64,000 nucleotides of DNA, taken from an uncultured Candidatus Saccharibacteria bacterium (GTDB lineage: Bacteria > Patescibacteriota > Minisyncoccia > UBA6257 > 2-01-FULL-56-20). A program made the position numbers and the translations under genes. The notes under the pieces were generated by a model. That model had not been told where the DNA came from. It did not search any database and worked only from the letters and a program-made list of their open reading frames with translations. Location: assembly GCA_964387675.1 (NCBI GenBank), contig CAYLWL010000001.1, forward strand, positions 74,819-138,818, in the 5' to 3' direction. Every line of letters begins with the position of its first letter. Position 1 is the stretch's first letter. Positions 2,708 through 59,575 of this stretch are shown piece by piece.

Positions 2708-4357
2708 ATGACAAAGATAAGAAAAATCTTTTTTGCGCTTACTGGGCGGGAGCGGGTGGTATTTTTATCCGCGGCGGCTTTGGCGATTGTGAGCGGCATA
2801 ATCCTTACCGGCTTGGGCTTCGCCCAAAACACGAGAGTCGTCCCGGCCTCGGGCGGAGAATACACGGAGGGCTTCCTCGAACAGCCGATCTATATAAACC
2901 CCGTCATCGCCTCTCTTGTTGTCGACAAAAGCATCGTGAAGCTTGTCTTTGAGAACATCCGCGGCATCGCCGAGAAAATAGAAACGTCGCCCGACGGCAG
3001 AATCTGGAATATCAGAATAAAAGAAAACTTGGAGTGGCACGACGGCGAAAGATTGACCACCGACGACGTCGTATTCACCATCCAAAAAATCCAGGACCCG
3101 GAAAGCTCGTCGCCGCTCGAAAAAATATGGCGCGGAGTGTCGGTGAAAAGGGTGAGTGGCCTTGAACTCCAATTGAGCTTGGTGAACGCGGACCCCTTCT
3201 TTCGGGAAACGCTCAACACTCTTTACGTCCTGCCGAAGCATCTCTTCTCGGAAATACCTCCGGCAAACTGGCGGCTTTCCGATTACAACCTGAAACCTGT
3301 CGGCGCCGGCCCCTACAAGTTTTCCTCTTACGAGAAGAAGCCCGACGGATTCATCGGCCTCTACCGGCTGGAGCAGTGGAACGACTACCCGGGAGAAAAA
3401 CCGCTGATCGGCAACTTCACCCTCAAGTTCTTCTCCGATCTTCAGGGTGTCATTGGAGATTTCAATTCCGGCCAGATCGACGGCATAGCCGGGCTTGAAC
3501 CCGATGCCGTGAGCCAAATAAAAAGACCTCACGAAACCTTCTCTTTTTATCTTCCGAGCTACTACGCGGTCTTTTTGAACCAAAGCAAGAGCATACCGCT
3601 CAAGGACTTGTCGGTGAGAAGGGCTCTTAGCGCGTCGGTTGGCAGGGCAGGCCTCGTCGAGAGCGCCCTCGGCGGACGAGGCAAACCGGCCCTTGGGCCG
3701 ATTCCCGCGGAGACGCCGTATTTTGACGAAAGCATATCCTCGTCAACGGAATCCATCGAATCGCTTGGAGACGCGCTCGACAGAGCCGGCTGGAAAATGA
3801 ACGACCAGGGGGTCCGGGAAAAAACGATAAAAAATACGAAGCTCCCGCTCGAACTGAATCTTACCGTCCCGCAGATAACATTCCTTACGAAAACCGCTGA
3901 AGTCCTTGCAAAAACATGGCAGCCGCTTGGTTTCAAAATCAACATCAACACGCCGGGGCTCGAAGAGATCGCAAAGAACACCATCACGAACCGGGACTAC
4001 GAAATGCTCGTCTTCGGCAATGTCCTCAATAAAAATCTCGACCTTTTTTCTTTCTGGCATTCTTCGGGCAGATTCAATCCCGGCCTGAATCTTGCGCTCT
4101 ACAACAATAAAAAGGCGGATGCCTTGATCGAGTCCATTCGGCTCGACTCAAACGAAGAAAGCCGCGCGAAGAAGCTCCGCGACCTCCAGACAATAATCAC
4201 GAGCGACTATCCGGCGGTATTCCTTTATTCGCCGGAATACACCTATATCACGACCAAAAACCTTCAGGGAGTTTCGGCGGGTCTCGTTGCCGACCCGTCC
4301 GACCGTTTTGTTGACGCGAAACAGTGGTATGTGAAAACGGCGCGAGTTCTAAAATAG
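2708..4357 (+). CDS. ABC transporter substrate-binding protein, family 5 (peptide/nickel type)
   Basis: 549 aa with an N-terminal TM/signal and a length and motif pattern typical of SBP_bac_5. Confidence 0.5.
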   Translation: MTKIRKIFFALTGRERVVFLSAAALAIVSGIILTGLGFAQNTRVVPASGGEYTEGFLEQPIYINPVIASLVVDKSIVKLVFENIRGIAEKIETSPDGRIWNIRIKENLEWHDGERLTTDDVVFTIQKIQDPESSSPLEKIWRGVSVKRVSGLELQLSLVNADPFFRETLNTLYVLPKHLFSEIPPANWRLSDYNLKPVGAGPYKFSSYEKKPDGFIGLYRLEQWNDYPGEKPLIGNFTLKFFSDLQGVIGDFNSGQIDGIAGLEPDAVSQIKRPHETFSFYLPSYYAVFLNQSKSIPLKDLSVRRALSASVGRAGLVESALGGRGKPALGPIPAETPYFDESISSSTESIESLGDALDRAGWKMNDQGVREKTIKNTKLPLELNLTVPQITFLTKTAEVLAKTWQPLGFKININTPGLEEIAKNTITNRDYEMLVFGNVLNKNLDLFSFWHSSGRFNPGLNLALYNNKKADALIESIRLDSNEESRAKKLRDLQTIITSDYPAVFLYSPEYTYITTKNLQGVSAGLVADPSDRFVDAKQWYVKTARVLK

Positions 4358-4475
4358 TATCTAGAATTTAGAACCTAGTATCCAGGATTTAGCGGCCTGG
4401 TGCGCTTGCGGTTTTTTTAATATTGGTTTAACCTATATTCTAGATTCTAGTTACTAAATTCTAGATTCTGATCAA

Positions 4476-5560: not shown

Positions 5561-5677
5561 GGAGTATTCGCGAATAACTCGAATCTTTAAATTAATAATG
5601 CGAATCATTAGGGTTGTTTAAGTCCGTGTATTCGCGTTATTGGCGGTTCGTTCATTCGCGTTATTCGCGACTACTCC
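5561..5677. repeat. Family-1 palindromic MITE-like element, copy 2
   Basis: TIRs 'GGAGTATTCGCGAATAAC' and 'GTTATTCGCGACTACTCC'. Its right TIR contains the TAG stop (complement) of the histidine kinase gene. Its left end abuts the holA-like start codon. Confidence 0.7.
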
Positions 5678-6999
5678 ATTGCCACTTCGTGTTTCGGCAC
5701 AAGATTTGGATCCGTGGGCAACGTAAAGTGAAACGCGCTTCCCCTGCCAAGCTCCGACTCCGCCCAAACTCGCCCGCCATGGGCCTGGATGATATTTTTC
5801 GCGATGTAGAGCCCAAGACCGGATCCTTCGGTCTGGGATTTCAAAACATTCTCGGCGCGAAAGAACTTTGTGAAGAGCTTCTCGATATCTTCTTTGGGGA
5901 TGCCAAGCCCCGTGTCGCTCACGGCGATCTCGACGTACGGCCCATCGCTTCGTTGTTCTACTTTCACAACAACCTCTCCGTTTTCAACGTTATAGCGTAC
6001 GGCATTTTCCAAAATATTAACGAGGGCGATAGAGAGCTTCTTCGGATCAATGAGGATTTTTGGCAGGGGAGATTTCGGCCGGTCGAAATACACTTTTATG
6101 CCGCTCTTTCTCGCAAGGGCGGCCACTTGCGCCAACGGCGCGCTCACAAAATCGATGATGTCGGCTTCCTCGAACGCGTATCCAAAACGTCCCTCCTCGA
6201 CCCTGGCGATATCAAGAAGGTCCTCGACGATTCTTTTGAGCTGACGGGCCGAAACAAGGGCGCTCTCCACGATGGTCTTATTCGTATCACCGAACGACTG
6301 GTCTCCCGCCAAAGATTCGATCGCCCAGTTGAGTTCCGTGATCGGAGTGCGAAGCTGGTGTGACGCAATCGTAAGAAACTCTGTTTTTGACTTCATTAAC
6401 GACTCCTCCCGTGTTCTGTTTTTGATGATTTTCATAAAACCGATCTGGGCGCCAGAACTATCGGCAACGATGGAGGTGGAGACCCTGAGTTCCAAAATCG
6501 GGTCCGAGAAAGACAAGTCAACCACTTGGGGATATTGTCCGGGCGTGGAACGATTAATGACCGACGGGGCAAGAGACGGAAAAATCACTTGAGCCAGCAA
6601 TTTGAACGAAGGATCTTCCACGCCTTTGGGCTCCAGACGGCGGCCGGAAACGCTTCCCCTCTCCAGGTGAAAGAGTTTTTCCGCCGCCGGATTAAAAAGA
6701 AGAATCTGGAAGTTGTTATCGTAGACCACGAGCGCGTCCTCCAGGTTCAAAAAAACGCTTTTGAGTTCGTTTTTCTCTATTTTCGTTCCCCGTTCGATCT
6801 TTGCCGCCCGGTAAGCGCCAAAAAAAACCAAAATTCCAAGAACCACAATCAAGCCCGCCTGAACGAAAAACACCCCTCTTGGTGAAGAAATATACGAACT
6901 CGCAAGCAGAGCGACGAGGAAGGCGGCAACAAGCCAAGCGATCCTCAATTCCGGCCACAATATTATTTCTCGTATTTTTCCCACATCCATACTTTTCAT
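5671..6999 (-). CDS. sensor histidine kinase (TM - PAS - HisKA - HATPase_c)
   Basis: H-box 'HQLRTPITELNWAIESL' and ATPase motifs 'GLGLYIAKNIIQAHGGRVWAE'. Start placed at 'MKSMDVGK...' (TM follows); the longer track ORF would overlap the upstream gene by >100 nt. Confidence 0.75.
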   Translation of the reverse strand: MKSMDVGKIREIILWPELRIAWLVAAFLVALLASSYISSPRGVFFVQAGLIVVLGILVFFGAYRAAKIERGTKIEKNELKSVFLNLEDALVVYDNNFQILLFNPAAEKLFHLERGSVSGRRLEPKGVEDPSFKLLAQVIFPSLAPSVINRSTPGQYPQVVDLSFSDPILELRVSTSIVADSSGAQIGFMKIIKNRTREESLMKSKTEFLTIASHQLRTPITELNWAIESLAGDQSFGDTNKTIVESALVSARQLKRIVEDLLDIARVEEGRFGYAFEEADIIDFVSAPLAQVAALARKSGIKVYFDRPKSPLPKILIDPKKLSIALVNILENAVRYNVENGEVVVKVEQRSDGPYVEIAVSDTGLGIPKEDIEKLFTKFFRAENVLKSQTEGSGLGLYIAKNIIQAHGGRVWAESELGRGSAFHFTLPTDPNLVPKHEVAME

Positions 7000-10288: not shown

Positions 10289-11965
10289 CTACCATTCGAT
10301 TTGTCCGGTTATATTTTCAATCTCCTCGAAGCTTGTTTCTCCTCGCAGAACTTTGAGCACGCCGTCTTCCTGCATCGTCACCATACCTCTTCGTTCGGCG
10401 AGTTTTGTGAGCGAAACTTCCGACGGCTCTTTGAGGACCACCTCTTCGAAATCCGGCCCTCCTTCCAAAAATTCGAAAACGCCGATCCGACCTTTATAAC
10501 CGAAATCGTTGCACCGGTTACAACTGCCCGCTTCGTACACGGTGAACTTTTGATATTTGCTCTTGTCTACGCGCGGCGGAAGTTTTTCCAGGAATTTTTT
10601 TATTTTGGATTTTAGCTCTGGGGTTTGGTTTACTGTTTTTTTGCAGTCGGGGCATAACTTCCGCACTAATCTTTGGGCAATAATAAGATTCAGGGCCGGA
10701 CCGATGCTCACCGGCTTCACGCCCAAATTGATCAGCCGAGGGACAGCGCCGACGGCGTCGTTCGTGTGGAGCGTGGAAAGCACCAAGTGGCCGGTGAGGG
10801 CCGATTGCATGGCGATATCGGCCGTCTCCAAATCCCTCACCTCCCCCACTAAAATAACGTCGGGGTCCTGGCGCACGATGGCTCGGAGCCCCTTCGCGAA
10901 CGTATAGCCGGCTTCCGTGTCAACCTGGGTTTGCTCGATTCCCAGAAGCCGATACTCGATAGGGTCTTCAAGGGTGATGATTTTCACCTTCGGATCGTTC
11001 AGTTCTCCGAGAAAAGCGTAGAGGGTGGTGGTTTTTCCCGATCCGGTTGGACCGGTATTCAAAATCAATCCGTTCGGCTTTGAGAGCTCTTTCTCGACGA
11101 TCGCCATGTCGTCTTCTCGGATCCCCAAAACCGCGATGCCAATGCTTGCCACGTCGGGATCAAGAATCCTCATTACGATATTCTCGCCGAATTCCGAAGG
11201 AATAACCGAAACCCTGATTTCGATTTCTTTGTTCCCGAAGCCGATCGTAAATCTGCCGTCTTGCGCCTCATCTCGCACGTTAATCTTCATTCCCGCGAGC
11301 AGTTTGATTCGGGAAACAAGCGCGTCGTAATTCTTGGGCGGCAGTTCGTTGAAAACGTCGTGGAGCAGGCCATCGACCCTTAATCGGACTTTCGCCTTTT
11401 TTTCTTCCGCCTCGAAATGAATATCCGATGCCTTGAGGGCGAACGCGGACGCGAGCACTCTTTCTATCAGATCGACTGGCGTGGTTTTGAAAAAGTCCAA
11501 ACCCGCGACTTCCTGTTTTGCGGCGGCAAGATTCACGATTCTCTTGACGAGCTCCTCCAACCTTTTTTGGGCGATACTCACTTTTCCCGTGATGTCGCCG
11601 GTGGATTCTTTTATGAACTTGTACTGATGCCAAACCTCTTGCAGTCCGGAAAGCGACGCTATGAAAATCTTGATGTCGTATTTTTTATCATGTAAATCGT
11701 CGATGGCTTTTTTGGTTGCGGGGAGCCGCGGGTCGGCTACGGCGAGAGCGATCTTTTTCGCATTCACCTGGATGCTTGCCGCCAGGGCTTTTTTGGCGTC
11801 ATCTTCTTTCAAAAACTTCAGAGCGTCGCTCGAAACCGGCACTTTGGAAAAATCCGCATACGGAAGGCCGAGTTCGCGCGCCAAACGCTCGGCGGCGCGT
11901 TCTTCGCCCTCCCTTCGGAGCAGATCCAGCTTCTGGATGAGGTTTGTTTGTTTTGGAGGAACCAT
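10289..11965 (-). CDS. pilB: type IV pilus / type II secretion assembly ATPase (PilB/GspE family)
   Basis: T2SSE_N-like N-terminus, Walker A 'GPTGSGKTTT', Asp/His boxes and a C-terminal tetracysteine motif. Its ATG is embedded in the family-2 element arm 'TTCTAACGGGATG'. Confidence 0.8.
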   Translation of the reverse strand: MVPPKQTNLIQKLDLLRREGEERAAERLARELGLPYADFSKVPVSSDALKFLKEDDAKKALAASIQVNAKKIALAVADPRLPATKKAIDDLHDKKYDIKIFIASLSGLQEVWHQYKFIKESTGDITGKVSIAQKRLEELVKRIVNLAAAKQEVAGLDFFKTTPVDLIERVLASAFALKASDIHFEAEEKKAKVRLRVDGLLHDVFNELPPKNYDALVSRIKLLAGMKINVRDEAQDGRFTIGFGNKEIEIRVSVIPSEFGENIVMRILDPDVASIGIAVLGIREDDMAIVEKELSKPNGLILNTGPTGSGKTTTLYAFLGELNDPKVKIITLEDPIEYRLLGIEQTQVDTEAGYTFAKGLRAIVRQDPDVILVGEVRDLETADIAMQSALTGHLVLSTLHTNDAVGAVPRLINLGVKPVSIGPALNLIIAQRLVRKLCPDCKKTVNQTPELKSKIKKFLEKLPPRVDKSKYQKFTVYEAGSCNRCNDFGYKGRIGVFEFLEGGPDFEEVVLKEPSEVSLTKLAERRGMVTMQEDGVLKVLRGETSFEEIENITGQIEW

Positions 11966-12080
11966 CCCGTTAGAAGCAAGTCGCGATCTGCGATTTGTAA
12001 GGTTTATTTAGTTTATGGCAACGACGATGCATATTTGAAGATTCTATGATTTCCGGGCGCGATCGCGGCTTCTAACGGGA
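11963..12080. repeat. Family-2 hairpin element, copy A (arms CCCGTTAGAAGC ... GCTTCTAACGGG)
   Basis: Perfect 12-bp inverted arms about 90 nt apart, extended by a GC-rich imperfect stem. One arm is fused to the pilB start codon. Confidence 0.7.
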
Positions 12081-12207
12081 CTATGTGATTTGATTGTATT
12101 CCCGAAACCTCGATAATTCAAGCCATTTGCCGGAGAAACTTGACGAAACGGTACTTGTGGTATATAATTTAGGCAGTACAATTCGATTTCTGGTCAGGAG
12201 AGTGTGT

Positions 12208-12925: not shown

Positions 12926-12968
12926 TAAAATACTAGATTCTAGATTCTAGATTCTATATTCTTAATAT

Positions 12969-13556
12969 ATGTCCGGGCACTCCCATTGGGCGGGAATCAA
13001 GCATAAAAAAGGCGTTGCGGACCAAAAACGCGGGGTGGCTTTTTCAAAACTCTTGGCGGCAATTTCTGCCACCGCAAAGTCCGAATCAAATCCGGACTTT
13101 AATCCGCGCCTCCGGACCGCCATCGAGAAAGCAAAGGAACAAAGCGTCCCTGCAGAAAACATCGAACGGGCCGTGAAGCGCGCCTCCGACTCGGCCGACG
13201 ACCTCGAAGAGCTGACTTTTGAATGCTACGGGCCGGGAGGAGTTGCAATCATCGTGGAAGCAATCAGCGACAGCAGAAACAGAACGGTGGCGGAGATTAA
13301 AAAGGTGTTGAGCGACTTTGGCGGAAAGTGGGCGGAGTCCGGAAGCGTCCGCTGGGCCTTCAATCGGGGCGCGGATGAACGCGGACGAGACGCGGACCCG
13401 CTTCGCCGAAACTTCAGCGAGGCGAGTCAACGCGGAACATGGAGGCCAAAGTTTACGCAAGAGATCGGCGAAGAGGAAAAAAACAAACTAAAAGAACTCA
13501 TCGGGGCGCTCGAAGAACACGACGACGTTCAAAAAGTTTATACCAATGCGAGATAA
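12969..13556 (+). CDS. yebC: YebC/PmpR family DNA-binding regulator
   Basis: 'MSGHSHWAGIKHKKG' and C-terminal 'DDVQKVYTN'. At 195 aa it is shorter than typical, so an internal deletion is possible. Confidence 0.75.
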   Translation: MSGHSHWAGIKHKKGVADQKRGVAFSKLLAAISATAKSESNPDFNPRLRTAIEKAKEQSVPAENIERAVKRASDSADDLEELTFECYGPGGVAIIVEAISDSRNRTVAEIKKVLSDFGGKWAESGSVRWAFNRGADERGRDADPLRRNFSEASQRGTWRPKFTQEIGEEEKNKLKELIGALEEHDDVQKVYTNAR

Positions 13557-13595
13557 GTCGTATTCTACTTTCTACATTCTACTTTCTACATTCTC

Positions 13596-14087
13596 ATGGT
13601 CATCCTAGGTATCGACCCCGGCACAAGAAGAATCGGATACGGGGTTATCAAAAAGTCATCCGCGGAACTCAAATTGCTTGACGCCGGACTGCTCGCCATA
13701 AAAAGCAAAGACGACTTCGGCGCGATGAAAGAAATGAAACAACAGATCGATGCGGTCATAAAAAAGTTCAAGCCGGAAGCGCTCTCTATCGAAAAGGTAT
13801 ATTTTGTGAAAAATCGGAAAACGGGCATAAAAGTCGCCGAGGCGCGGGGGATCATAATTTCTTGCGCCCTCACCCTGGGTCTGCGGGTAGAAGAATACGG
13901 CCCAAACGAGGTGAAAGCGGCTCTTACCGGCTATGGCTTTGCCGACAAGAAAGCCGTGCTTAAAATGGTGCGAATTATCCTCAAAGAACCGGGTCTCAAG
14001 GTTATCGACGACGCAAGCGACGCCCTGGCGCTCGCCATTGTTGCTGGGTATAAGTATGGGGTTGACAGCCGAGCAACTCACCTATAA
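13596..14087 (+). CDS. ruvC: crossover junction endodeoxyribonuclease RuvC
   Basis: 'ILGIDPGTRRIGYGVI' RNase-H-fold resolvase. Confidence 0.85.
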   Translation: MVILGIDPGTRRIGYGVIKKSSAELKLLDAGLLAIKSKDDFGAMKEMKQQIDAVIKKFKPEALSIEKVYFVKNRKTGIKVAEARGIIISCALTLGLRVEEYGPNEVKAALTGYGFADKKAVLKMVRIILKEPGLKVIDDASDALALAIVAGYKYGVDSRATHL

Positions 14088-18078: not shown

Positions 18079-19434
18079 TTAGCTGTGGTAAATCGCTTCC
18101 TTAATCATTAATATCTTCTGATTAAGGTTTTGATTCTTATTGACTTCTTGATTGATTTTTTCGTAGGAGTGAATGGCGGTGGTGTGATCTCTCCCCATTT
18201 TTTCCCCAATATACGGATATGACAACTCGGAAATATCCCGCAATAAGTACATTGCTATCTGCCGCGGCTCCACAACCTCTTTCCTCCGGTTGTGACTCAC
18301 TAAATCTTCCAAAGAAATATTGAAGAAATCGGCCACTGCTTTGAGTATTTGGCTGTCACTCACATATCGAGAAGAAGATTGGAGGGTTTTATTAATGATC
18401 TCTTCCGCCGACTTTTCGTTAATATCGGTTTGTTTTCTGTCTTGAGTGAAGAGTATTTTCTTCAAAACACCCTCCAATTCACGGATATTTCTCTTTACTC
18501 TCTTCGCGATAAGGTCTATAACGGCGTCGTTGAGCTGTAAATTCGCCTCTTCCAGCTTGCTTTTTATGATTGCCACGCGCATTTCGTACTCGGGGTACCC
18601 AATATCTGCCGTAAGCCCCCCTTCGAATCGGGAACGGAGCCGTTCTTCGAGGGTGGGGATGGCTTGCGGCGGCCGGTCGGAGGAAATGATGATTTGTTTA
18701 TTCGCTTCGTATAAAGCATTGAACGTGTGGAAGAATTCTTGTTCTGTTTTTTCTTTTCCGCCGATGAATTGGATGTCGTCGATGATCAACACATCGATAT
18801 CTCGGTATTTCTTTTTCGTATCCTCCATCCTTTTATTTTTTATTCCCCACACGACGTCGCTGGTGAACTTTTCCGAAGAGACATACTTCGGTTTTATTTT
18901 ATTTCTGTACTTTAAGATTATTTCGTTGCCAATCGCCTGGATGAGGTGGGTTTTACCTAGGCCGACACCTCCGTAGATAAAGAAAGGGTTATACTTTTTT
19001 CCTATTTCCTGGACGATTGCCGAAGCGGCGGCGAAAGCCAGTTCGTTCGACGGCCCGACAATGAAGGATTTCAAAGTGTACCTTTGGTTCAGGTTCGTTT
19101 CCGGATCGACTTTGAAATCCAAATCGATTGAATTGTCTATTGTCGAAAGATCGTTGCTGATTGCTTTTGAGGGACTGAACACGCTTGTCGCGCTCGTTAC
19201 GGTAAACTCCAGTTTTTTCACCGAACTATCCATGTTTCTCAATATGCCAAGTATATTTTTGTGGTATTTGTTCTCCACCCATTCTTTCGCGAAGTTGTTC
19301 GGGAGGGAAATATAAAAAGTACCGCCCTTTTTATCGATTAATTTGCTGTTCTTGAGCCAGGTGGCGAAATTAGCCCTTGATAATTGCACCTCCATTTCTC
19401 CCAACGTTGATTGCCAAATTTGATCAAGTTCCAT
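18079..19434 (-). CDS. dnaA: chromosomal replication initiator DnaA
   Basis: Walker A 'GGVGLGKTHL', AAA+ and a C-terminal DnaA-box-binding domain. Start taken at 'MELDQIWQ' (the track ORF extends 9 codons further). Its ATG lies in the family-2 arm 'TTCTAACGGGATG'. Confidence 0.9.
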   Translation of the reverse strand: MELDQIWQSTLGEMEVQLSRANFATWLKNSKLIDKKGGTFYISLPNNFAKEWVENKYHKNILGILRNMDSSVKKLEFTVTSATSVFSPSKAISNDLSTIDNSIDLDFKVDPETNLNQRYTLKSFIVGPSNELAFAAASAIVQEIGKKYNPFFIYGGVGLGKTHLIQAIGNEIILKYRNKIKPKYVSSEKFTSDVVWGIKNKRMEDTKKKYRDIDVLIIDDIQFIGGKEKTEQEFFHTFNALYEANKQIIISSDRPPQAIPTLEERLRSRFEGGLTADIGYPEYEMRVAIIKSKLEEANLQLNDAVIDLIAKRVKRNIRELEGVLKKILFTQDRKQTDINEKSAEEIINKTLQSSSRYVSDSQILKAVADFFNISLEDLVSHNRRKEVVEPRQIAMYLLRDISELSYPYIGEKMGRDHTTAIHSYEKINQEVNKNQNLNQKILMIKEAIYHS

Positions 19435-19553
19435 CCCGTTAGAAATAGGACGCGGACGCAACCGTCCACCCCAATTTTAGTTTTTTTACGTGAATTATTG
19501 CCATTTCGAAGTAAGACATCTGGTTTTTGGCGCGTCCGCGATTTCTAACGGGA
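19432..19553. repeat. Family-2 hairpin element, copy B (arms CCCGTTAGAAAT ... ATTTCTAACGGG)
   Basis: The arms carry a compensatory AT-for-GC change relative to copies A and C, plus an extended stem 'CGCGGACGC/GCGTCCGCG'. One arm is fused to the dnaA ATG. Confidence 0.7.
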
Positions 19554-19719
19554 TCAATTTTTATTTTATGAAAGCGATAGATTCATTCTATTTTTTATCT
19601 GGACGAAGTCAAAGAGCGAGAATCGGCAACTTTGGGGATTACCTGTTAATAACTTTTTCAACCGAGACAAACCGGGTCTCGTTTGTACCCATCAACAGTA
19701 CCATGTTAGTATAGATGAT

Positions 19720-19854
19720 ATGTCGGTTACCTATCAACCGAAGAAAAAGAAGAGAAAAAGGGCGCACGGCTTCCTCGCGAGGCAAAGAAGGTCGTCGGGA
19801 CGCAATGTGCTCAAAAGAAGGCGCGCCAAAGGACGACGCCGGCTTACTGTCTAA
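19720..19854 (+). CDS. rpmH: 50S ribosomal protein L34
   Basis: 44-aa ORF '[44 protein letters not shown]'. It is absent from the ORF track because it is under 60 aa. Classic position between dnaA and rnpA. Confidence 0.8.
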
Positions 19855-21035: not shown

Positions 21036-21441
21036 ATATATGGGCTTCAAGGATTATCGCCTGGAAATTAAACCGGAGCAGAAGAGAGGAGCAGTTTTTA
21101 TTTATGACAACCCGACTTTGGTGAAAGAAAATTTGCCGACTCTTGTGGACAGCTTGAATCACGTCGTGCAAATGGCGGTGAGAAAAAACGGCGAACAGGC
21201 GATTCTTTTCGACATCAATAATTACCGGCAAGAAAGAGAAAGCTTAATTACCGAACTCGCGAGGGCGGCGGCGAAAAAGGTCTTAATGACCAAAGAGAAA
21301 ATTTCTCTCCCGGCGATGAACTCTTACGAAAGAAGGTTGGTCCACATCGAGCTTTCGGTGCACCCGGAAGTTACGACCGAAAGCGCGGGAATGGGCAGGG
21401 AGAGATGCGTGATCATAAGGCCAATCGAGAGTAATCGCTAA
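20998..21441 (+). CDS. jag: Jag/SpoIIIJ-associated KH-R3H RNA-binding protein
   Basis: R3H motif 'SYERRLVHIELS'. Follows yidC as in rpmH-rnpA-yidC-jag clusters. Its stop lies inside a family-1 element. Confidence 0.7.
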   Translation: MDNPESFVKKIIEYMGFKDYRLEIKPEQKRGAVFIYDNPTLVKENLPTLVDSLNHVVQMAVRKNGEQAILFDINNYRQERESLITELARAAAKKVLMTKEKISLPAMNSYERRLVHIELSVHPEVTTESAGMGRERCVIIRPIESNR

Positions 21442-21518
21442 TCACGCGAATGGCGGCAAATAACGCTAATATGATTCGCGTTATTACCTAGCGATTAGCG
21501 TTATTCGTGATTACTCCC
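21429..21518. repeat. Family-1 palindromic MITE-like element, copy 3
   Basis: TIRs 'GAGTAATCGC...GTGATTACTCCC'. Supplies the TAA stop codons of both convergent genes (jag and 21501..22739). Confidence 0.7.
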
Positions 21519-26402: not shown

Positions 26403-26413
26403 TTTAATTTTTT

Positions 26414-26443
26414 AGCTTTTAGCTTTTAGGTGTTAGCTTTTAG
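26414..26443. repeat. AGCTTTTAG iteron-like 30-bp repeat R1
   Basis: 'AGCTTTTAGCTTTTAGGTGTTAGCTTTTAG'. Near-identical copy at 27121-27150 and an inverted copy at 27584-27613. Confidence 0.7.
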
Positions 26444-26451
26444 CACTAAAA

Positions 26452-27114
26452 CTAGCGTTCCGGCAAAACAACTTTTTCTTTTTCGACCGTTCCCGGGTTG
26501 TAAAAGTTATAAAAAAGCTCGATCAGCTGTTCGTCGTTCAAGACGGTCGCTTCGAGGCCGATGACCAGAAGATTCTCCATCACCTGCCGCACCCGCTGTT
26601 TCAACTGCTCCAGGTTTTCTTCGAACGTGGCTTGCGTTTCTTTCTTCGCGCGCTCTTCCGCCGCCTTATTCTTTTTCTTCAAAAAAGGCAGGAGGCCTTC
26701 TATGCCGGTCGCGCTCGCGAGGACATTCGGAAAGAAAGGCACCACCAAAAAAAAGGATTTTTCCATAATGGGATTCTTCTCGATGAAGCCGGAAACGAAT
26801 TCGCGGTACTCTTCGGCCTGGTTCTGCAAAATAGGAGAGGTTTCTCTTTGCTGGAATTCTCGGAGCCCTTCCAGGTATTTGTCGATGTTGATCTTCCTCG
26901 AGTGGATGAGTATTTGCAGGGGGAAATCCAAGCTATTCAGAAGGTTCTGATACGCTTGCAGAACAATGTTTTGCTCCGTTTCCGATTTGAGGGCGAAATT
27001 AATGCCGCCCACCATGACTACTTGGCGCAAACTGCCATTTTTGAGGATAACCGTGCTGTCTTTGATATCCTTGATGGCGACGAGATCTTGGCTGTTGGCA
27101 AATTCTTTGGGCAT
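26452..27114 (-). CDS. VirB4-family N-terminal domain protein (split VirB4)
   Basis: N-terminus '...LVAIKDIKDSTVILKNGSLRQVVMVGGINFALKSETEQ...' resembles the VirB4/PrgJ N-terminal domain. The 49-bp gap to the C-terminal part contains repeat R1. Confidence 0.5.
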   Translation of the reverse strand: MPKEFANSQDLVAIKDIKDSTVILKNGSLRQVVMVGGINFALKSETEQNIVLQAYQNLLNSLDFPLQILIHSRKINIDKYLEGLREFQQRETSPILQNQAEEYREFVSGFIEKNPIMEKSFFLVVPFFPNVLASATGIEGLLPFLKKKNKAAEERAKKETQATFEENLEQLKQRVRQVMENLLVIGLEATVLNDEQLIELFYNFYNPGTVEKEKVVLPER

Positions 27115-27120
27115 GTAAAT

Positions 27121-27150
27121 AGCTTTTAGCTTTTAGGTGTGAGCTTTTAG
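27121..27150. repeat. AGCTTTTAG iteron-like repeat R2
   Basis: 'AGCTTTTAGCTTTTAGGTGTGAGCTTTTAG'. Confidence 0.7.
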
Positions 27151-27159
27151 TCCTTATAA

Positions 27160-27531: not shown

Positions 27532-27583
27532 TAAAAGCAGCTTTCAGCTGTTAGATGTTAGCTTTTAGTTTTTGTAATCGTAC

Positions 27584-27613
27584 CTAAAAGCTAAAAGCTA
27601 AAACCTAAAAGCT
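27584..27613. repeat. AGCTTTTAG iteron-like repeat R3 (inverted)
   Basis: Reverse complement is 'AGCTTTTAGGTTTTAGCTTTTAGCTTTTAG'. A partial direct copy lies at 27548-27573. Confidence 0.7.
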
Positions 27614-28853: not shown

Positions 28854-30035
28854 TCAAGGTTGTACTGGCGGCGTTGGCGGTTTCGGGGGAAGTGGCGGTT
28901 TTGGTAGTATAGGTGGTTTAATCTCGCTGATTATCGGCGAGAGTGTTTTATGCTCATCAAGACCTCGAATGGCAGGTGCCGCTGGTGGTTTCGGGATGGT
29001 CGGAGACGTAAGCGGTTTCGGAACCGGAGGCAGAGAGGATGGCGTTTTGACTTCGCTTGTTGGGAGCTTGTCTTGGGCGGTTTCGAGGGGCTTGTTCGCC
29101 TGGGGTGTGGCTGGTCTGATTGCGGCGAGCTGTTTGAGAATATCGGATCCGCCAAGGGACGGCTTCGACGACTCAATAGCCGTGATTTCTTTTATTTCGC
29201 GCCCTGGCTTGCCCTCTGTAGCCTTAGCGAAGGAGGGGGCCGCGCCGGAAGGTTTATCCTGAGCCGCGCCGAAGGGCGTTTTGGACTCCGTGTAGTGCAC
29301 CACCCGCACCTGCTCCTTGTTACTTGTCACTTGTTGCCTGTTACTCGTCGAGGGTCCGAATTCAAGCACGGCCGGTTTCGTTGCTTCGGTTTTAAGTTTT
29401 ATTTCCGACAGTTTCGGCTGTGGCATTTCCAGTCGGAATTCTTTTTTGAGAGGAGCGGAAACCGGTTCTTCGTGAAGAATCATCGGCGGCGGTGTGCCGG
29501 GGCTTGGGACCGCCGGTTTGCCGGGCGGTACCGGAGAAATTGACGGAGTTAGTGGAGCGGGGGGCTTCTCGGCGCGGTTTATCACAGGCGGCATCGAAGG
29601 GCTTGGCGCAAACGGTTCGGCGGTTTTCGCCGCCGGAAGAAGCGGCGGTTTTATTTCCGTGACTGGTTTTAGCGGTTCGGTTTTACTTATCATAACGGGA
29701 GCGAAGGCGGACGGCGGCTCGTATATTTTTTCCAAGTCAGCCAAGAGCGGCTTAAAAACTCTTTCGTTTACGGCGTTGGCGATGGATGTCGCGATTTGAA
29801 TGTCCAAGCCGAGCGCGTCTTTTAATTCTTGCGCGAAGTCTCCCGCGTGGATAAAGCCCAAGAGCACATAGCCGGCAATTGCCGCGACGCGATAAATCTT
29901 TTCTTTTGGTACGTGCTCCGCTTCGCAGGTTCGCCAGAGGAAATCAGAATGTACGTCGGAATAGAGAGCCTCCTTTAATTTACTTGGTAGCGTGTCCCAC
30001 CGCGCCAACGCTTGATCTGGAGAAATCGTTATCAT
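28854..30035 (-). CDS. Pro-rich hypothetical protein (structured N-terminal domain plus long P/S/T/K-rich disordered region)
   Basis: 393 aa. Contains an in-frame GTGACA-family repeat coding 'QVTSNKEQ'. Confidence 0.4.
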   Translation of the reverse strand: MITISPDQALARWDTLPSKLKEALYSDVHSDFLWRTCEAEHVPKEKIYRVAAIAGYVLLGFIHAGDFAQELKDALGLDIQIATSIANAVNERVFKPLLADLEKIYEPPSAFAPVMISKTEPLKPVTEIKPPLLPAAKTAEPFAPSPSMPPVINRAEKPPAPLTPSISPVPPGKPAVPSPGTPPPMILHEEPVSAPLKKEFRLEMPQPKLSEIKLKTEATKPAVLEFGPSTSNRQQVTSNKEQVRVVHYTESKTPFGAAQDKPSGAAPSFAKATEGKPGREIKEITAIESSKPSLGGSDILKQLAAIRPATPQANKPLETAQDKLPTSEVKTPSSLPPVPKPLTSPTIPKPPAAPAIRGLDEHKTLSPIISEIKPPILPKPPLPPKPPTPPVQP

Positions 30036-34344: not shown

Positions 34345-35196
34345 TCATGAGGCCATGGCGCGGGCTATCCGAACTATATCTTCTACGCTCAAGTTCTGTG
34401 GTCTGCTTTTGGGGTCTACGCCCATTTTTATTAGGGTTTCGGCGATGCTTTCTTTGCTTTCTGGCTTACCGGTGGTTTTGCGGCTTCGGTCTTGACACCT
34501 GATACTTGACACCTGACACATATTATTGAGAATCGTTTTCCTCGGCTGGGCAAAAAGAATTTTCACGGTTTTATAGTAAAGTTGCTCCCTGACGCCTGAC
34601 ACATGACACTTGACGCTTAGTTTGACGATCGCCGAATCGACTTCCGGCTGTGGGTCGAAATCTTTTCTTGGGATGAGGCCGATCAATTGCGGGTCTGCCC
34701 AAAATTGGACGATCGCGGCCAAACGATTCATTCGCGGGGGCGCGGCGCAAATTCTTTCCGCGACTTCTTTCTGGATAGTGAAGACGCACAACTCTGGCTT
34801 CGTTGACAATTCGCTCAATATTCTCAAAAGTTTTCCGGTAATGTAGTAGGGAATATTGCCGACAATCTTATATTCAGATTTAAGATTTATGAATTTTGAT
34901 TTAAGAATGCTTAAGGCGTCACCGTTTAGAATTTCTATATCTTTAATTCCTAAATCATAAATCCTACTTCTTAAATCATTCGCAAGCTTTGGATCTTTTT
35001 CAATCGCAATAACTTTTATCGGCGGCGAGCCGTTTTTTTCTAAAAGCTCACAGCTAAAACCTAAAAGCTCTTCAGTCAGCTCTCCGTGCCCCGGGCCGAT
35101 CTCGACGATGGTGTCGCCGGGTTTCAATTCCACGGCACCGACGATTTTTCGAATCGCCGATCTATTTTGCAAGAAATGTTGGCCCAGCCGCTTCAT
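34345..35196 (-). CDS. rsmA: 16S rRNA (adenine1518/1519-N6)-dimethyltransferase RsmA/KsgA
   Basis: 'LGQHFLQNRSAIRKIV...IVEIGPGHGELT'. The C-terminal region carries two in-frame TGACAC-repeat insertions coding Cys/Gln/Val/Ser-rich peptides. Confidence 0.8.
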   Translation of the reverse strand: MKRLGQHFLQNRSAIRKIVGAVELKPGDTIVEIGPGHGELTEELLGFSCELLEKNGSPPIKVIAIEKDPKLANDLRSRIYDLGIKDIEILNGDALSILKSKFINLKSEYKIVGNIPYYITGKLLRILSELSTKPELCVFTIQKEVAERICAAPPRMNRLAAIVQFWADPQLIGLIPRKDFDPQPEVDSAIVKLSVKCHVSGVREQLYYKTVKILFAQPRKTILNNMCQVSSIRCQDRSRKTTGKPESKESIAETLIKMGVDPKSRPQNLSVEDIVRIARAMAS

Positions 35197-35286: not shown

Positions 35287-37143
35287 CTAATCAAGCGTTA
35301 CATAATCTTCCTCGAAAGAAGTGACGTCGGTTGCGTTTTGACCTTCAAAAACAGTGAGCTCTTCCGGAATTTCGGAAATAAATCTCGACGGCGTATTGTG
35401 GAAACCGATGCAGAGCTCGCGCTTTGCCCGCGTCATCGCGACGTACATCAGTCGCCGCTCTTCTTCCATTTGATACTCGTTTTCCATAGACATCGCGTGA
35501 GGCAGGAGCCCTTCGGAACAGCCGGCGATAAAAACGCGGTCAAACTCCAATCCTTTTGCCAAATGGATCGTCATGAGATGTGTTTCATTTTCGCCGTCTC
35601 TTGTCCCTTGTCCCTTGTTACTTGTTACACTATCGGCGGGCTGCATCAGCGTGATTTCTTCTAAAAACCGACCCACATCATCGAATCGCTTCGCGAAATT
35701 CAAAAGCTCCCCTATGTTTTCTTGTTTTTCCTCGTAATTCTCGAAGTTTCTTTCGAGATACCCAAGATAATCCGTGGCCTCGAGAAACGATTCGATCCAT
35801 TGAACCGGCTTCAGCTTTTTGCTTTTCGCGAGCCGTATCGTTTCTTCGAATCCGCTAAGTTTTTTCTTGGAGAAGTTCTTTTCGAGCCGATCGAAGCTGA
35901 TTTCGTCTTTATTGGTCGCGTAACGGAGCGCGGCAATGACGTCTTTGATTTCTTTCCGCTCGTAAAACCTCAAGCCGCCGAAAATTCGGTACGGTATTTT
36001 ATTTCTAATGAGCGCTTGCTCGATCGCTCTCGACTGGGCGTTCGTTCTGTATAGAACCGCAGTCGTTTGTTCATTGGAAATTGGAAATCGGAAATTGGAA
36101 ATTTGCTTTGCGATCCATTCCGCCTCATTGTTTTCGTCCGCCGCTCCGAAAACTTTTATCGATTCCCCCTTCTGATTTTTCGTCCAAAGGTTTTTCGGCC
36201 GCCGGTAATTATTATTACTCGCCACACTCGAGGCCCCCTTGATGATATTCGCGGTTGACCGATAGTTTTCTTCCAAGAACCGTATTTGGGCGCCCGGCCA
36301 GTCCTTTTCAAATCCCAGAAATATTTTGAGATCCGCGTATCGCCATCCGTAAATCAATTGTTCGTCATCGCCCACCACGCTGATATTTTTGTGTTCTCCG
36401 GCCAGGAGATTGACGAGCTCGTACTGTTTTGGATTGACGTCTTGATACTCGTCGACGAGGATCGCCTCGAACCTGCTTCGATGTTTTTCGAGCGCCTCGG
36501 GATGTTTTTGGAAAAGAGATACGACTTTCTCTATGAGGTCGTCGAAATCGAAGGCGTTATTTTCTTTGAGCCGCGATTCGTAGAGAGCATATACTTCGAG
36601 CGCCAGTTTGTCTTTTTGCTTTTCGGATAGCCGTAGTTTTTGGAGCGCCGAGTCGGTATTTTTTATTTCGGAGATTCTTCTCGCGAAAAACGACGGCTTT
36701 TCTTGGCTTGCGGCTGAGGAATCATCGTCGCCGCCGTTCCATAGTTTTTTCTTCACGATCTTTTTTATGAGATCGAACGAATCATGGTCGTCGAAAATGA
36801 CGAAGCGCGCATTGCGGCCGAGGAGGCGCGCCTCCTGCCGCAGGATGTTCGCCCCCAAGCCATGGAAAGTGCCGATAAACGCTCCTTGACACTTGACACT
36901 TGCCTGCCCGCCGTAGCCCCGGCGAAGGAGGGACGCTTGACACCTCGTAAACATCTCCCGCGCCGCCTTATTGGTAAACGTTATGGCGCAGATTTTATGC
37001 GCCGGGACCCCGGATTCTATGAGGTTGATGAGCCGGGCGGTCAGGGTGGTCGTTTTCCCGGTCCCGGCTCCGGCTACTATTAAAAGGGGTCCGCCGGGGG
37101 CTTTTGCCGCCTCTTCTTGCTGGGGATTCAATTTATGTGACAT
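35287..37143 (-). CDS. UvrD/PcrA/Rep-family ATP-dependent DNA helicase
   Basis: 'LLIVAGAGTGKTTTL', 'TFHG' and 'VDEYQD' motifs. Start placed at 'MSHKLNPQQ'. Contains three in-frame repeat insertions. Confidence 0.8.
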   Translation of the reverse strand: MSHKLNPQQEEAAKAPGGPLLIVAGAGTGKTTTLTARLINLIESGVPAHKICAITFTNKAAREMFTRCQASLLRRGYGGQASVKCQGAFIGTFHGLGANILRQEARLLGRNARFVIFDDHDSFDLIKKIVKKKLWNGGDDDSSAASQEKPSFFARRISEIKNTDSALQKLRLSEKQKDKLALEVYALYESRLKENNAFDFDDLIEKVVSLFQKHPEALEKHRSRFEAILVDEYQDVNPKQYELVNLLAGEHKNISVVGDDEQLIYGWRYADLKIFLGFEKDWPGAQIRFLEENYRSTANIIKGASSVASNNNYRRPKNLWTKNQKGESIKVFGAADENNEAEWIAKQISNFRFPISNEQTTAVLYRTNAQSRAIEQALIRNKIPYRIFGGLRFYERKEIKDVIAALRYATNKDEISFDRLEKNFSKKKLSGFEETIRLAKSKKLKPVQWIESFLEATDYLGYLERNFENYEEKQENIGELLNFAKRFDDVGRFLEEITLMQPADSVTSNKGQGTRDGENETHLMTIHLAKGLEFDRVFIAGCSEGLLPHAMSMENEYQMEEERRLMYVAMTRAKRELCIGFHNTPSRFISEIPEELTVFEGQNATDVTSFEEDYVTLD

Positions 37144-37162
37144 GTGACAAGCAACAAGTAAC

Positions 37163-38302
37163 ATGGAACACGTAACAACAGATAATGCGGGGAGGGGGAA
37201 CTTTTCTTTGCCCTTCGTCCTTGTCACTTGTTACTTGTCCCATGTCTCATCGTTATGCTATAGTTTACCTATTAGTAAGATTTTAAGCCAAATAAAGTCA
37301 AATAACGACCATAAGCCATTGAAAGTGGCCGTTTTTTTGATTGCCGGGCTTGCGTTCTGCTCCTTTTTCTATGATCCGGGCACCGGCCTATTAGGCGGCG
37401 AGAGGGGTATCTTTGGCGGACCCGTAGACCAGGTTTTTACCCCTGGCAACATCATCCTCGAAACGGCCTCGGCATTTGGCGAGGGATCTCCCACGGGAGG
37501 CGCCTCGCTCCACAACACGGCTCTTGAATCAAGCGTTTTTCCCGGCTCGTTGAGTGATAGAGAGTCGGGTTTTGGCCAGACCTCCTCTCGCGAGGGGCTT
37601 TTAGTGTATCGGGTTCAGAAAGGCGATACGCTCTCCGGAATTTCTTCTTATTTCGGCGTATCTTTGGATACGATCGTGAACGCGAACCCGAACGTCAAGG
37701 CGAGGTATCTGGTTCCGGGGGATGAGCTCAAGATTCTGCCCACCTCCGGAAGCGTGTATCTCACTCGGGATGGCGACACGATGGAATCGATTTCGGATTA
37801 TTTCAATGTGCCGCAGGACAGCTTGTTGAAATTTAACAGATCCGTCAATTTCAACTCTCTCGAAGCGGGCGTTTCCGTTGTCATCCCCGGAGTGAAGGGG
37901 TATGCCCAAAGCAAGAACTCGCTTCCGAACTTGAACAGCAACTTCATCATTCCCGCGCAGGGCTTTAATTGGGGCAAACTTCATCACTATAACGCGGTGG
38001 ACATCGCAAACTCCTGCGGAACGCCGGTTGTGGCTTCTGCCGAAGGGCTTGTAATCCCCGACAACAGTTTCGGAGACGGAAGGGGCGGCTGGAGCGGCGG
38101 TTACGGGAATTTCGTCTTGATAGAGCACCCGTTTGGCGACTCCGTTCGCACTCGCTATGCTCATTTGTCCAAAGTATTAGTTGATATTGGTGACTATGTT
38201 AAACAGGGCGAGGAGATAGGTGTTATGGGAGATAGCGGGGACTCTACGGGTTGCCACCTCCATTTCGAGGTGTACGGGGCGCAGAATCCATTTGTCCGGT
38301 AG
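37163..38302 (+). CDS. M23-family metallopeptidase with two LysM domains
   Basis: LysM 'YRVQKGDTLSGISSYFGV' and 'TRDGDTMESISDYFNV'; M23 motifs 'HYNAVD' and 'GCHLHFEV'. The true start is probably internal (TTG 37318 or GTG 37324) because the first ~50 codons overlap the helicase leader and repeat DNA. Confidence 0.75.
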   Translation: MEHVTTDNAGRGNFSLPFVLVTCYLSHVSSLCYSLPISKILSQIKSNNDHKPLKVAVFLIAGLAFCSFFYDPGTGLLGGERGIFGGPVDQVFTPGNIILETASAFGEGSPTGGASLHNTALESSVFPGSLSDRESGFGQTSSREGLLVYRVQKGDTLSGISSYFGVSLDTIVNANPNVKARYLVPGDELKILPTSGSVYLTRDGDTMESISDYFNVPQDSLLKFNRSVNFNSLEAGVSVVIPGVKGYAQSKNSLPNLNSNFIIPAQGFNWGKLHHYNAVDIANSCGTPVVASAEGLVIPDNSFGDGRGGWSGGYGNFVLIEHPFGDSVRTRYAHLSKVLVDIGDYVKQGEEIGVMGDSGDSTGCHLHFEVYGAQNPFVR

Positions 38303-53296: not shown

Positions 53297-53371
53297 GGGC
53301 GCATAGCTCAATGGCAGAGCACCGAGCTTATACCTCGGCGGTTCTAGGTTCGAATCCTAGTGCGCCCACCA
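53297..53371 (+). tRNA. tRNA-Ile (anticodon UAU)
   Basis: Acceptor GGGCGCA/TGCGCCC, D-arm GCTCAATGGCAGAGC, anticodon stem CCGAG/CTCGG with loop CTTATAC, T-arm CTAGGTTCGAATCCTAG, CCA encoded. Confidence 0.8.
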
Positions 53372-54893: not shown

Positions 54894-54920
54894 AGCAAAT
54901 ACTTAAAATCGCAAGGGATT

Positions 54921-55033
54921 TCGAACCTGCGCTTGGCGAGCCGCGCCGTGCGCGGCGAGCCAGTGTTTCCATACCTTTCCGCGCTTCGCGCGGCAAAATC
55001 CATTGGCAAAATTTCTGAAAGTTTAATACTGGT
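54921..55033. repeat. IR-A' (inverted copy of IR-A)
   Basis: Reverse complement of 53368-53480, including 'CACCAGTATTAAAC' derived from the tRNA 3' end. Confidence 0.8.
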
Positions 55034-55182
55034 GCGTTTGTTTGACGAAATCCGAACCTTTTTTGAACAGAACTGACCGCCTCCGCTTCGCTCCAGCGGA
55101 ACGCTCGGGCGCGGCGGAATTCCCCCCTTGAACCCCCCTTCCGCCGCGCCCTCGCAAGAGGCCAGAATTTTTTCGCCGCCAA
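55034..55182. repeat. IR-B (GC-rich ~150 bp), left inverted repeat flanking the cargo genes
   Basis: Near-perfect reverse complement of 56766-56911. Confidence 0.8.
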
Positions 55183-55260
55183 TCCAATTAAGAAATGATT
55201 AAGCATAGTTATACTATAGTATAACCGTTGTCCAACAAAACAACAAGTGATAAACTGTGT

Positions 55261-55476
55261 ATGAAGAATATGCAAGAAATATCAAAGAAATTAGGCGAGA
55301 ACTTGAAAAAGGTTCGCGCCAAGAAAAAATTGTCGCAAGGAGCTTTAGCGCGGCTTTTAGAGGTTGATAAGGGCTATGTAAGCAACATTGAGAGTGGTAA
55401 GAAAAATCCTACCCTTGCGACAATTCAACGATTAGCTGACGCGCTCGGTGTGACGGCTGATGAACTATTGAAATAA
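55261..55476 (+). CDS. XRE-family helix-turn-helix transcriptional regulator
   Basis: 'LSQGALARLLEVDKGYVSNIESGKKNPTLATIQRLADALGV'. AT-rich cargo. Confidence 0.75.
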   Translation: MKNMQEISKKLGENLKKVRAKKKLSQGALARLLEVDKGYVSNIESGKKNPTLATIQRLADALGVTADELLK

Positions 55477-55477
55477 T

Positions 55478-55966
55478 ATGGTTTACTTTCGCGAACAAGA
55501 AAAATTTAGAGCGCGCGCAGAAGAATTATTTTTGAAAGAGCAAAAAAGAATTTTGCGCGTTGTTCCAAAGGCAGATATTCAGCACATCGGAAGCACTGCG
55601 GTTCCCGGCTCTCTAACAAAGGGCGACCTTGATATTCAGGTTAGAGTTAAAGAAAAAGATTTTGATAAAGCGCAAAATGCTCTTTCAAAAATGTATAAAC
55701 CAAATAAAGGAAATCCTTCCACGAAAACGTATGCGAGCTTTAAGGATGACAGTACAAAAATTCCTCTTGGGGTTCAGCTAACAGTTATTGGTTCTAAAGA
55801 GGATAATTTTACGACTTTGAGAGATATTTTGATACGCGATAAAAAACATCTGAAAGAATATAACTCCCTGAAAAAGCGGTACCAAGGAAAATCAATGCAA
55901 GAATACCGAAAAGCTAAAGGAAAGCTTGTTGGAAAAATTTTGAAATCAAAAACCAAGAGAGTATGA
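55478..55966 (+). CDS. GrpB/UPF0157-family nucleotidyltransferase-fold protein
   Basis: 'HIGSTAVPG...KGDLDIQV'. Confidence 0.6.
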   Translation: MVYFREQEKFRARAEELFLKEQKRILRVVPKADIQHIGSTAVPGSLTKGDLDIQVRVKEKDFDKAQNALSKMYKPNKGNPSTKTYASFKDDSTKIPLGVQLTVIGSKEDNFTTLRDILIRDKKHLKEYNSLKKRYQGKSMQEYRKAKGKLVGKILKSKTKRV

Positions 55967-56754: not shown

Positions 56755-56765
56755 TATATTTCTGT

Positions 56766-59503: not shown

Positions 59504-59575
59504 TTTGACTCTCCCGTTGGTTTCGGTATATGCTTACGACATCGTTAAAGAGTCACTTATTCCTAAAAAACTCAT
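59504..59575. repeat. DR-R (second copy of the promoter/leader repeat)
   Basis: See DR-L. Confidence 0.6.

Follow-up and report, generated by a model that had tools for sequence, protein, structure and literature searches.

Palindromic hairpins at three start codons of a Candidatus Saccharibacteria contig are probably copies of a small mobile element that rebuilds the start codon

Why should the same kind of long hairpin stand directly against the start codons of pilB, dnaA and a third gene? The question is raised by a stretch of 64,000 nucleotides (nt) from an uncultured Candidatus Saccharibacteria bacterium (assembly GCA_964387675.1, contig CAYLWL010000001.1, positions 74,819 to 138,818), here called the window. 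A first reading of the letters alone, the sequence-only reading, had offered two answers: a transposable element of the miniature inverted-repeat kind (MITE) that donates start codons, similar to the Correia elements or the Rickettsia palindromic elements (RPEs), or a conserved structured 5' leader that regulates essential genes. The three hairpins are probably copies of a MITE-like, non-autonomous DNA transposon by which the start codon is rebuilt at the site of insertion, with a translational hand-over proposed for the expression of the gene behind it. The element is mobile and non-coding, it has inverted repeats and a target duplication, and the start codon beside it is a rebuilt one. It is read as MITE-like because of the duplications at its flanks, the empty orthologous sites, the many copies in many genomes and the unrelated genes that lie downstream. 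Of the first answer the MITE kind has therefore stood, but the element itself gives no more than the codon's first base (A or G), the TG coming from the duplicated target, and it does not belong to the Correia or RPE families. The second answer fails, as four relatives have a dnaA without the element and the downstream genes form no regulon.

In the window there are three copies, A at pilB, B at dnaA and C at a gene for a protein of 209 amino acids (aa), and the positions first given for them are correct. Each has the same exact 10-nt arms, CCCGTTAGAA and TTCTAACGGG. Exact CCCGTTAGAA occurs six times on the two strands of the window, against 0.16 times expected from shuffled sequence, and none of 100 shuffles reached six or more. 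These six matches are three inverted pairs, with 90–98 nt between the arms. Folded as RNA, all three copies give long hairpins that are more stable than shuffled sequence (z = -4.4 for A, -5.1 for B and -3.4 for C), in the folding check that the sequence-only reading had suggested, and the foot of the stem extends to the AU of the AUG. The contact between arm and start codon was likewise seen correctly in all three copies, but in A and B the gene lies on the minus strand and adjoins the low-coordinate arm. Copy B does have AT for GC at stem positions 11–12 and its own stem extension, CGCGGACGC/GCGTCCGCG. Such compensatory changes are real, but alone they are no proof of selection on an RNA, since matched repeats of transposon subfamilies give them too. 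The loops, which had been called unrelated, are mostly so between genomes, but copies A and C have an interior motif in common (ATATG.AT.GTCGT..CCATAAA, in the same orientation relative to the gene). What had been overlooked is that short direct repeats flank the arms of the window copies.

The three starts in the window are genuine, because the Pfam domain DnaA_N begins at residue 5 of the predicted DnaA, PilB homologues all begin with MVPPKQ, and the NCBI gene models of the same genome have identical starts and lengths (451, 558 and 209 aa). The coordinates of these starts, and of the flanks at the far end of each element where the old starts lay, are collected in Table 1. In copy C the old ATG now opens an upstream open reading frame (ORF) of 12 codons (MNPVRSRDHSAK). 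The arm of copy C also supplies, as had been claimed, the TAG stop of the upstream Wzy_C gene, which overlapped the 209-aa gene before the insertion. In copy B the old start has mutated from ATG to ATT, and the outermost T of the element pairs with the A of the rebuilt dnaA ATG.

Table 1. Coordinates in the window of the three element copies, the start codons and flanks they touch, and the short-unit repeats
Feature	Position	Strand	Remarks
Copy A, 114-bp palindromic element	11966-12079	-	arms 11966-11975 and 12070-12079; extended stem GC + CGCGATC/GATCGCG; oriented by pilB
ATG of pilB/GspE	11963-11965 (CAT)	-	ORF 10289-11965, 558 aa, T2SSE/PilB; directly against arm
Distal flank CATAGT of copy A	12080-12085	-	decayed copy of duplicated ATGGT; relative L129 still AATGGT
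-10-like box TACAAT, probable pilB promoter	12093-12098	-	7 nt upstream of distal flank
Copy B, 118-bp element	19435-19552	-	arms 19435-19444 and 19543-19552; AT variant at stem positions 11-12; extension CGCGGACGC/GCGTCCGCG with 4-nt bulge
ATG of dnaA	19432-19434 (CAT)	-	ORF 18079-19434, 451 aa; directly against arm
Distal flank ATTGAT of copy B	19553-19558	-	old ATGGA start (ATGGAC in relative L121), then outermost T at 19553
Copy C, 110-bp element	62634-62743	+	arms 62634-62643 and 62734-62743
Distal ATGAAT of copy C	62628-62633	+	half of perfect 6-nt direct repeat; contains old start codon
TAG in 5' arm of copy C	62639-62641	+	stop of upstream Wzy_C gene, 61295-62641
Proximal ATGAAT with rebuilt ATG of 209-aa gene	62744-62749	+	ORF 62744-63373; ATG 62744-62746
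Short-unit repeats, group 1	4356-4469, 12930-12971, 13562-13603
Short-unit repeats, group 2	26403-26454, 27117-27159, 27535-27613, 35038-35072
Short-unit repeats, group 3	34490-34618, 61225-61294
Short-unit repeats, group 4	29315-29341, 35597-35626, 37153-37252

The insertions can be followed in relatives, in which empty sites were found at dnaA and pilB when the upstream regions were compared as the sequence-only reading had advised. Four relatives (L121 to L124, with DnaA identities of 76–86%) have dnaA without the element. Where L121 reads ...ATATAAAAATGGACTTGGATCAA, the window reads ...AAAATAAAAATTGAT, then the 118 bp of the element, then ATGGAACTTGATCAA, so that TGGA is duplicated. The relative's contig around dnaA did not include pilB, and the empty pilB site was reached through a separate homologue search. 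It is found in L131 (70% identity), which reads TATCAT-N7-ATGGTA. In L129 (79%) a member of the same family occupies the same site with AATGGT as its far flank, and between this copy and that of the window the arms and the second stem are almost unchanged and the loop has diverged. The pilB insertion is therefore the older one, being common to the window and its sister genome L129; the insertions at dnaA and at the 209-aa gene are lineage-specific. For the 209-aa gene, L134 (68%) is empty and has the two genes overlapping by 11 nt, as the ATGAAT repeat predicts, and L133 (63%) has a family member with a different second stem. At all three genes the junctions of the filled sites agree with the empty sites.

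Two further relatives have other palindromes at these start codons, whose arms are quite different, in each case with the ATG duplicated: CCCTCACCCTTCGAAG... at pilB in L130 (883-1000) and CCAGGCAGTGAAAATTCGACT... at the 209-aa gene in L132 (669-800). Start codons have thus been struck repeatedly, and by more than one family, and several palindrome families may share this habit. A metagenome scan for such a second family, with the L130-type arms CCCTCACCC...GGGTGAGGG, returned mostly an unrelated high-GC repeat resembling repetitive extragenic palindromes (REPs). That repeat, CCCTCACCCCGGCCCTCTCCC...GGGAGAGGGCCGGGGTGAGGG, is very common in the high-GC metagenome contigs L135 to L254 and has no relation to the element. 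In the sister genome L132, the epimerase/GDP-mannose dehydratase gene downstream of the 209-aa gene (1448-2230) contains an intein (775 aa, Intein_splicing).

The search for further copies that had been proposed was made in one genome per species, with the two arms 75–105 nt apart, and it found the same arms at 120 loci or more (at least 120) in these species-representative genomes. Among the matches listed (80 titles), about 57 are Patescibacteria of many classes, including Saccharibacteria, Paceibacteria groups, Berkelbacteria, Kazan, Levyibacteriota and others. A further 17 of the matches listed are labelled Omnitrophota, Planctomycetota, Deltaproteobacteria, Edwardsbacteria or Stahlbacteria, and one is a small contig labelled Gammaproteobacteria; taxon labels on small contigs of metagenome-assembled genomes may be wrong. 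Viral contigs gave two matches, and phages are therefore not the main carrier. No match was found in a plasmid collection by blastn with copy C. Rfam at the gathering threshold found only two tRNAs in the whole window and no match for the elements, and copies B and C matched nothing meaningful in permissive Rfam scans either. A literature search on the arm sequence and on MITE, start-codon, leaderless and Patescibacteria topics found no published description of the element. The genes downstream are diverse housekeeping genes, such as those for ATP synthase, ClpP, PGK, FtsW, topoisomerase, tRNA synthetases, SecDF, L1, NusA and PilC, and among 78 of them no Pfam family recurs more than four times. 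A gene-specific leader of the riboswitch or attenuator type was rejected for this reason and because four relatives lack the element at dnaA.

The set analysed further consists of 132 complete copies, those of the window included, of which 82 could be oriented by their gene. The elements are 98–139 bp long and contain no transposase gene; their only ORFs encode peptides of 6–40 codons whose sequence is not conserved. The terminal inverted repeats have the form (T/C)CCCGTTAGAA, that is, an exact core of 10 nt to which are added one outer pair (T:A or C:G) and two pairs that covary. The outermost pair is T:A in 77 of the 132 copies and C:G in 50. Position 11 of the stem is GC in 37 copies, AT in 33 and CG in 5, and position 12 is TA in 47, CG in 27 and AT in 4. 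A GC-rich second stem of 7 bp is present in 31 of the 82 oriented copies, in three main complementary versions (CGCGATC, CGCGGTC and CGCGGAC), and a fixed 4-nt bulge on the 3' strand precedes it in 30 of the 31; the reverse-complemented elements give a 4-nt bulge once. The subfamilies with a second stem thus stand in one orientation relative to the gene (30/31), and another subfamily is present in both. Loops range from 6 to about 270 nt, and there are minimal palindromes of 27 bp. At L117 (7265-7574) one family member is inserted within another, with flanks of its own (GTGTAC/GCGTAC). On the viral contigs L125 (6246-6579) and L126 (8384-8717) there are tandem mini-palindromes of 26 bp, ACCGTTAGAAC-N4-GTTCTAACGG, whose core is the same as that of the arms. 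An autonomous element was looked for as arms 300–3500 bp apart with extended inverted-repeat similarity, and at the 134 loci this gave only pairs of separate small elements. Ends that start with CC, together with a duplication of 4–5 bp, are reminiscent of the IS1380 family.

In 98 of the 132 copies one arm directly adjoins an ATG or GTG, and in 82 an ORF of at least 60 codons opens there. In at least six further copies the ATG is 2 nt in from the arm and the duplication is TATG. A perfect 4-nt direct repeat is found at the flanks of 82 of the 132 copies, compared with 8.7% for pairs of flanks taken from different copies, and also in 24 of the 34 copies without a start codon. Oriented by the gene, the far flank reads ATGAAT (A in 69, T in 68, G in 58, A in 57, A in 58 and T in 68 of the 82) and the near flank ATGAAN, so that the two form a direct repeat. 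The duplication is usually 4 bp long (range 3–5), and its sequences are TGAA (37), TAAA (12), TGGA (9), TGAG (9), TATG (4) and TCAA (3); for the TAAA duplications no association with stop codons was seen. The repeats contain bases of the recipient gene, for example GGA for dnaA and GGT for pilB. These are therefore real duplications from a staggered cut and were not copied from a donor locus. A switch of template from one start region to another, as an alternative to transposition, was rejected on the same ground, that the duplicated bases belong to the recipient gene. The first base at the distal side is A in 69 and G in 3 of the 82 oriented copies. In copies with a rebuilt GTG, the far codon is mostly still ATG (L011, L013, L027, L067, L098, L105). 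This combination fits a C:G-ended variant that was inserted into an ATG, so that the codon has its first base from the element and its TG from the duplicated target. On the upstream side, the TAG of an arm ends an incoming long ORF on 12 element sides, and the TGA of a distal ATGA does so on 9.

The staggered cut, usually of 4 bp, thus falls most often at A^TGAA, within the start codon itself. The duplicated TG.. then follows the last base of the element (A, or G in the C:G variant), which puts an ATG or GTG against the 3' arm and leaves the coding sequence intact, and the old ATG stays at the 5' foot of the hairpin, beside the end of the upstream gene or the promoter that was there before. 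How the gene behind such a hairpin is expressed can be proposed as follows. Once transcribed, the element would form a long hairpin, and the AU of the start codon would be paired in its foot. A ribosome would open this hairpin and so expose the rebuilt AUG or be handed over to it; it might have begun at the old AUG, in many cases the 5' end of a leaderless transcript, or it might be finishing the upstream gene at the TAG of the arm or at the ATGA overlap. In many copies a short ORF spans the whole element and ends at a TAA 4 nt before the AUG. That copies survive at start codons, with a single orientation and an open frame, would then reflect selection for this arrangement.

The surroundings of the old starts are consistent with part of this route. 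A -10-like hexamer is found 3–9 nt (mostly 6–7) before the old ATG in 42 of the 82 copies, compared with 15% for random positions and 31% for other long ORFs. A Shine-Dalgarno motif precedes the old ATG in only 7 of the 82, and across all loci it precedes the first ATG of about 11% of the long ORFs. With the box so close and the Shine-Dalgarno motif so rare, many target genes look leaderless, pilB among them (TACAAT-N7). Other target genes lie inside operons. The box at pilB is probably its promoter, judging from its position and from its equivalents in relatives (TAGAAT in L129, TACAAT in L130, and TATCAT-N7-ATG at the empty site of L131), and the transcript would start at the foot of the hairpin. 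A separate gene of the window, rpmH (start 19720; 19700-19722), has TATAGA, 4 nt (TGAT) and then ATG, has no Shine-Dalgarno motif and also looks leaderless. An outward promoter inside the element was looked for as well, and no TANNNT peak was found at any fixed distance from the ATG in either orientation.

Other features point to the sense strand, and these bear on a rival explanation, namely that the hairpin and its decoy start are a domesticated module of translation control, kept for the benefit of the host, with mobility only spreading it. Such a module might serve as a 5' stem-loop that gives stability to leaderless mRNAs, or it might tune initiation as a thermometer or as a switch by short ORF and reinitiation. 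In 27 of the 82 copies no stop interrupts the frame of the old ATG within the interior, against 8.6 +/- 2.7 for shuffled interiors (maximum 17 in 1000 shuffles) and 5–13 for the other five frames. Element lengths fall into the classes 0, 1 and 2 mod 3 with 23, 35 and 24 copies, a modest excess of 1 mod 3, and in that class 20 of 35 are open, the frame ending at the TAA of the 3' arm, which lies 4 nt ahead of the rebuilt ATG. Of the 23 copies with an in-frame length (0 mod 3), only 2 have the frame open. The peptides of these short ORFs show no conservation beyond the parts encoded by the stem. The imperfect arms of the oriented copies have four G:U and no A:C pairs, and the sense strand folds better than the antisense strand by 1.1 kcal/mol (p = 0.036). 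The orientation of the second stem, the open frame and the G:U pairs hint at selection at the level of RNA or translation, and all three speak for the transposon with its hand-over and for the module alike. So do the near-constancy of the pilB arms and second stem between the window and L129 while the loop diverged, the different palindrome families at the same starts in relatives, and the near absence of neutral intergenic copies in Patescibacteria. The module is nevertheless unlikely. At the same genes close relatives do without the element, and the genes downstream share no function. One subfamily is found in both orientations, most of the short ORFs terminate in the loop, and the old ATG has been lost from some copies.

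The transposon reading has its own difficulties. The placement of about 80% of the copies on start codons reflects either active targeting or positive selection on position, and the target motif is too information-poor to account for it; neutral intergenic copies would be expected to be common, yet they are rare. The register is variable, as ATGGT|CCCG, ATGAA-T|CCCG and ATGGA-AT|CCCG are all present. Neither an autonomous element with these ends nor a transposase was found at the 134 loci, and the wide range of loop lengths together with the minimal palindromes is unusual for deletion derivatives of one insertion sequence. Members of a subfamily have a common ancestry, so the counts given above exceed the number of independent events. 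Against the hand-over in particular, the loop contains the stop of about two thirds of the short ORFs, and the old ATG is gone from window copies A (ATA) and B (ATT), so that this route is not universal. Moreover, dnaA is probably not leaderless, as a conserved TAGAAT box about 26 nt upstream suggests a short leader, and a ribosome would have to recognise an AUG that has no Shine-Dalgarno motif and lies at the foot of a stem longer than 20 bp. A stronger form of the transposon reading is tentative at best: that the element homes actively to starts, that its end rebuilds the codon, that leaderless genes are then expressed by short-ORF read-through and reinitiation, and that several families with unrelated arms follow this strategy.

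The range of loops also raises the possibility of a REP/REPIN-like hairpin, moved in trans by a single-copy HUH enzyme (RAYT-type) or another enzyme acting on single-stranded DNA, in place of a DDE transposase. Conservation is limited to the foot of the hairpin, the loops, minimal palindromes and tandem mini-palindromes fit such a mode, and so does the lack of an insertion sequence with the same ends at the 134 loci. It is made quite improbable by the 3–5-bp duplications with their recipient-specific bases; to our knowledge, flanking duplications are not expected from HUH single-strand transposition. In addition, the REP superfamilies described in PMC3733652 are characterised by a GTAG or CGTC tag. 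The elements lack both tags, and no RAYT gene was seen, although no systematic search for RAYT genes was made. An integron attC-like site deserves hardly any credence, even if the boxes GTTAGAA and TTCTAAC resemble the attC cores GTTRRRY and RYYYAAC (in each box 6 of 7 positions agree with the consensus), the element is built as a bulged hairpin whose loop varies, and the hosts include Deltaproteobacteria and Planctomycetota, in which integrons are known. The order of the boxes is inverse, GTTRRR...YYYAAC with GTT/AAC at the outer end of the stem instead of RYYYAAC...GTTRRRY, and flanking duplications are present. The copies are also solitary and stand before core genes such as dnaA, not in cassette arrays.

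The window contains other repeats. A second palindromic family, with arms GGAGTAGTCGCGAATAAC(G/T)CGAAT, is intergenic (2316-2414, 5561-5678, 21429-21518 and 59572-59669); an ATG adjoins its CTCCC end at 2411 and 59569, and lies 5 nt away at 5555. Intergenic repeats of short tandem units (TTCTAGA, TTTTAGC, CTTGACAC and CTTGTYAC), both inverted and direct, often lie within about 10 nt of gene starts (groups 1 to 4 in Table 1). A large serine recombinase of 521 aa (Resolvase, Recombinase and Zn_ribbon_recom domains; 53328-54893, minus strand) is encoded in a region, 53297-56941, that adjoins a tRNA gene (53297-53368) and may be an integrated or invertible element. The recombinase gene overlaps, at both of its ends, perfect inverted repeats of 114 nt (53367-53480 and 54921-55034), and a second inverted pair of 176 nt (55007-55182 and 56766-56941) has GrpB and methyltransferase genes between its halves.

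A mobile element within an essential gene would usually be expected to be lethal. In this case dnaA, pilB and dozens of other housekeeping genes stay intact, because the end of the element and the target duplication recreate the start codon. Identical ends across many classes of Patescibacteria and some other phyla would mark horizontal transfer among mostly uncultured organisms. There are consequences for annotation as well, since gene callers yield proteins that are extended N-terminally through the arm, such as a DnaA of 460 aa (P0002). Finally, mRNAs without Shine-Dalgarno motif, many of them probably leaderless, gain a 5' hairpin of 110 nt and a decoy AUG, which makes these genes a natural experiment on how starts are found.

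The element is not a Correia element, RPE, REPIN or attC site, because the defining features of each were checked and are absent from it, but there are instructive likenesses. Correia elements (CREE) are of the MITE class too, about 100–150 bp in size, with terminal inverted repeats, short duplications, many copies and no transposase of their own. They are co-transcribed with their neighbours as long RNA hairpins and can supply expression signals or stop codons. Correia elements have inverted repeats of 26 bp and a TA duplication and are known only from Neisseria, whereas the present element has ends of unrelated sequence and a 3–5-bp duplication (mostly TGAA), is spread over many classes of Patescibacteria and other phyla, and sits on a start codon in about 80% of its copies and rebuilds that codon. 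With the RPEs it has in common that it is palindromic, mobile and tolerated in small genomes within the boundaries of a gene, which it does not destroy. RPEs enter genes in frame and become part of the translated protein; the present element, in contrast, stays outside the protein, and its in-frame-length copies are rarely open. REPINs and REPs with their RAYTs are likewise hairpin repeats of about 100 nt with conserved inverted ends and many copies, but the present elements have flanking duplications, lack the tag and stand at start codons and not at extragenic sites after genes.

For the proposed expression, the coat/replicase pair of MS2 and the erm leader peptides, in which an upstream ribosome unmasks a start buried in a helix, may serve as a lead. 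Programmed bypassing (T4 gene 60, mitochondrial byps), where identical sequences flank a hairpin, might offer another, as a lead only. The introner elements of algae and fungi are DNA transposons that create introns, their ends and the target duplication recreating a splice site. They are eukaryotic, act through splicing and are unrelated in sequence, but in both cases the end of the element and the duplication restore a signal of the host, here the start codon, and make the insertion harmless, a likeness of mechanism and not of ancestry.

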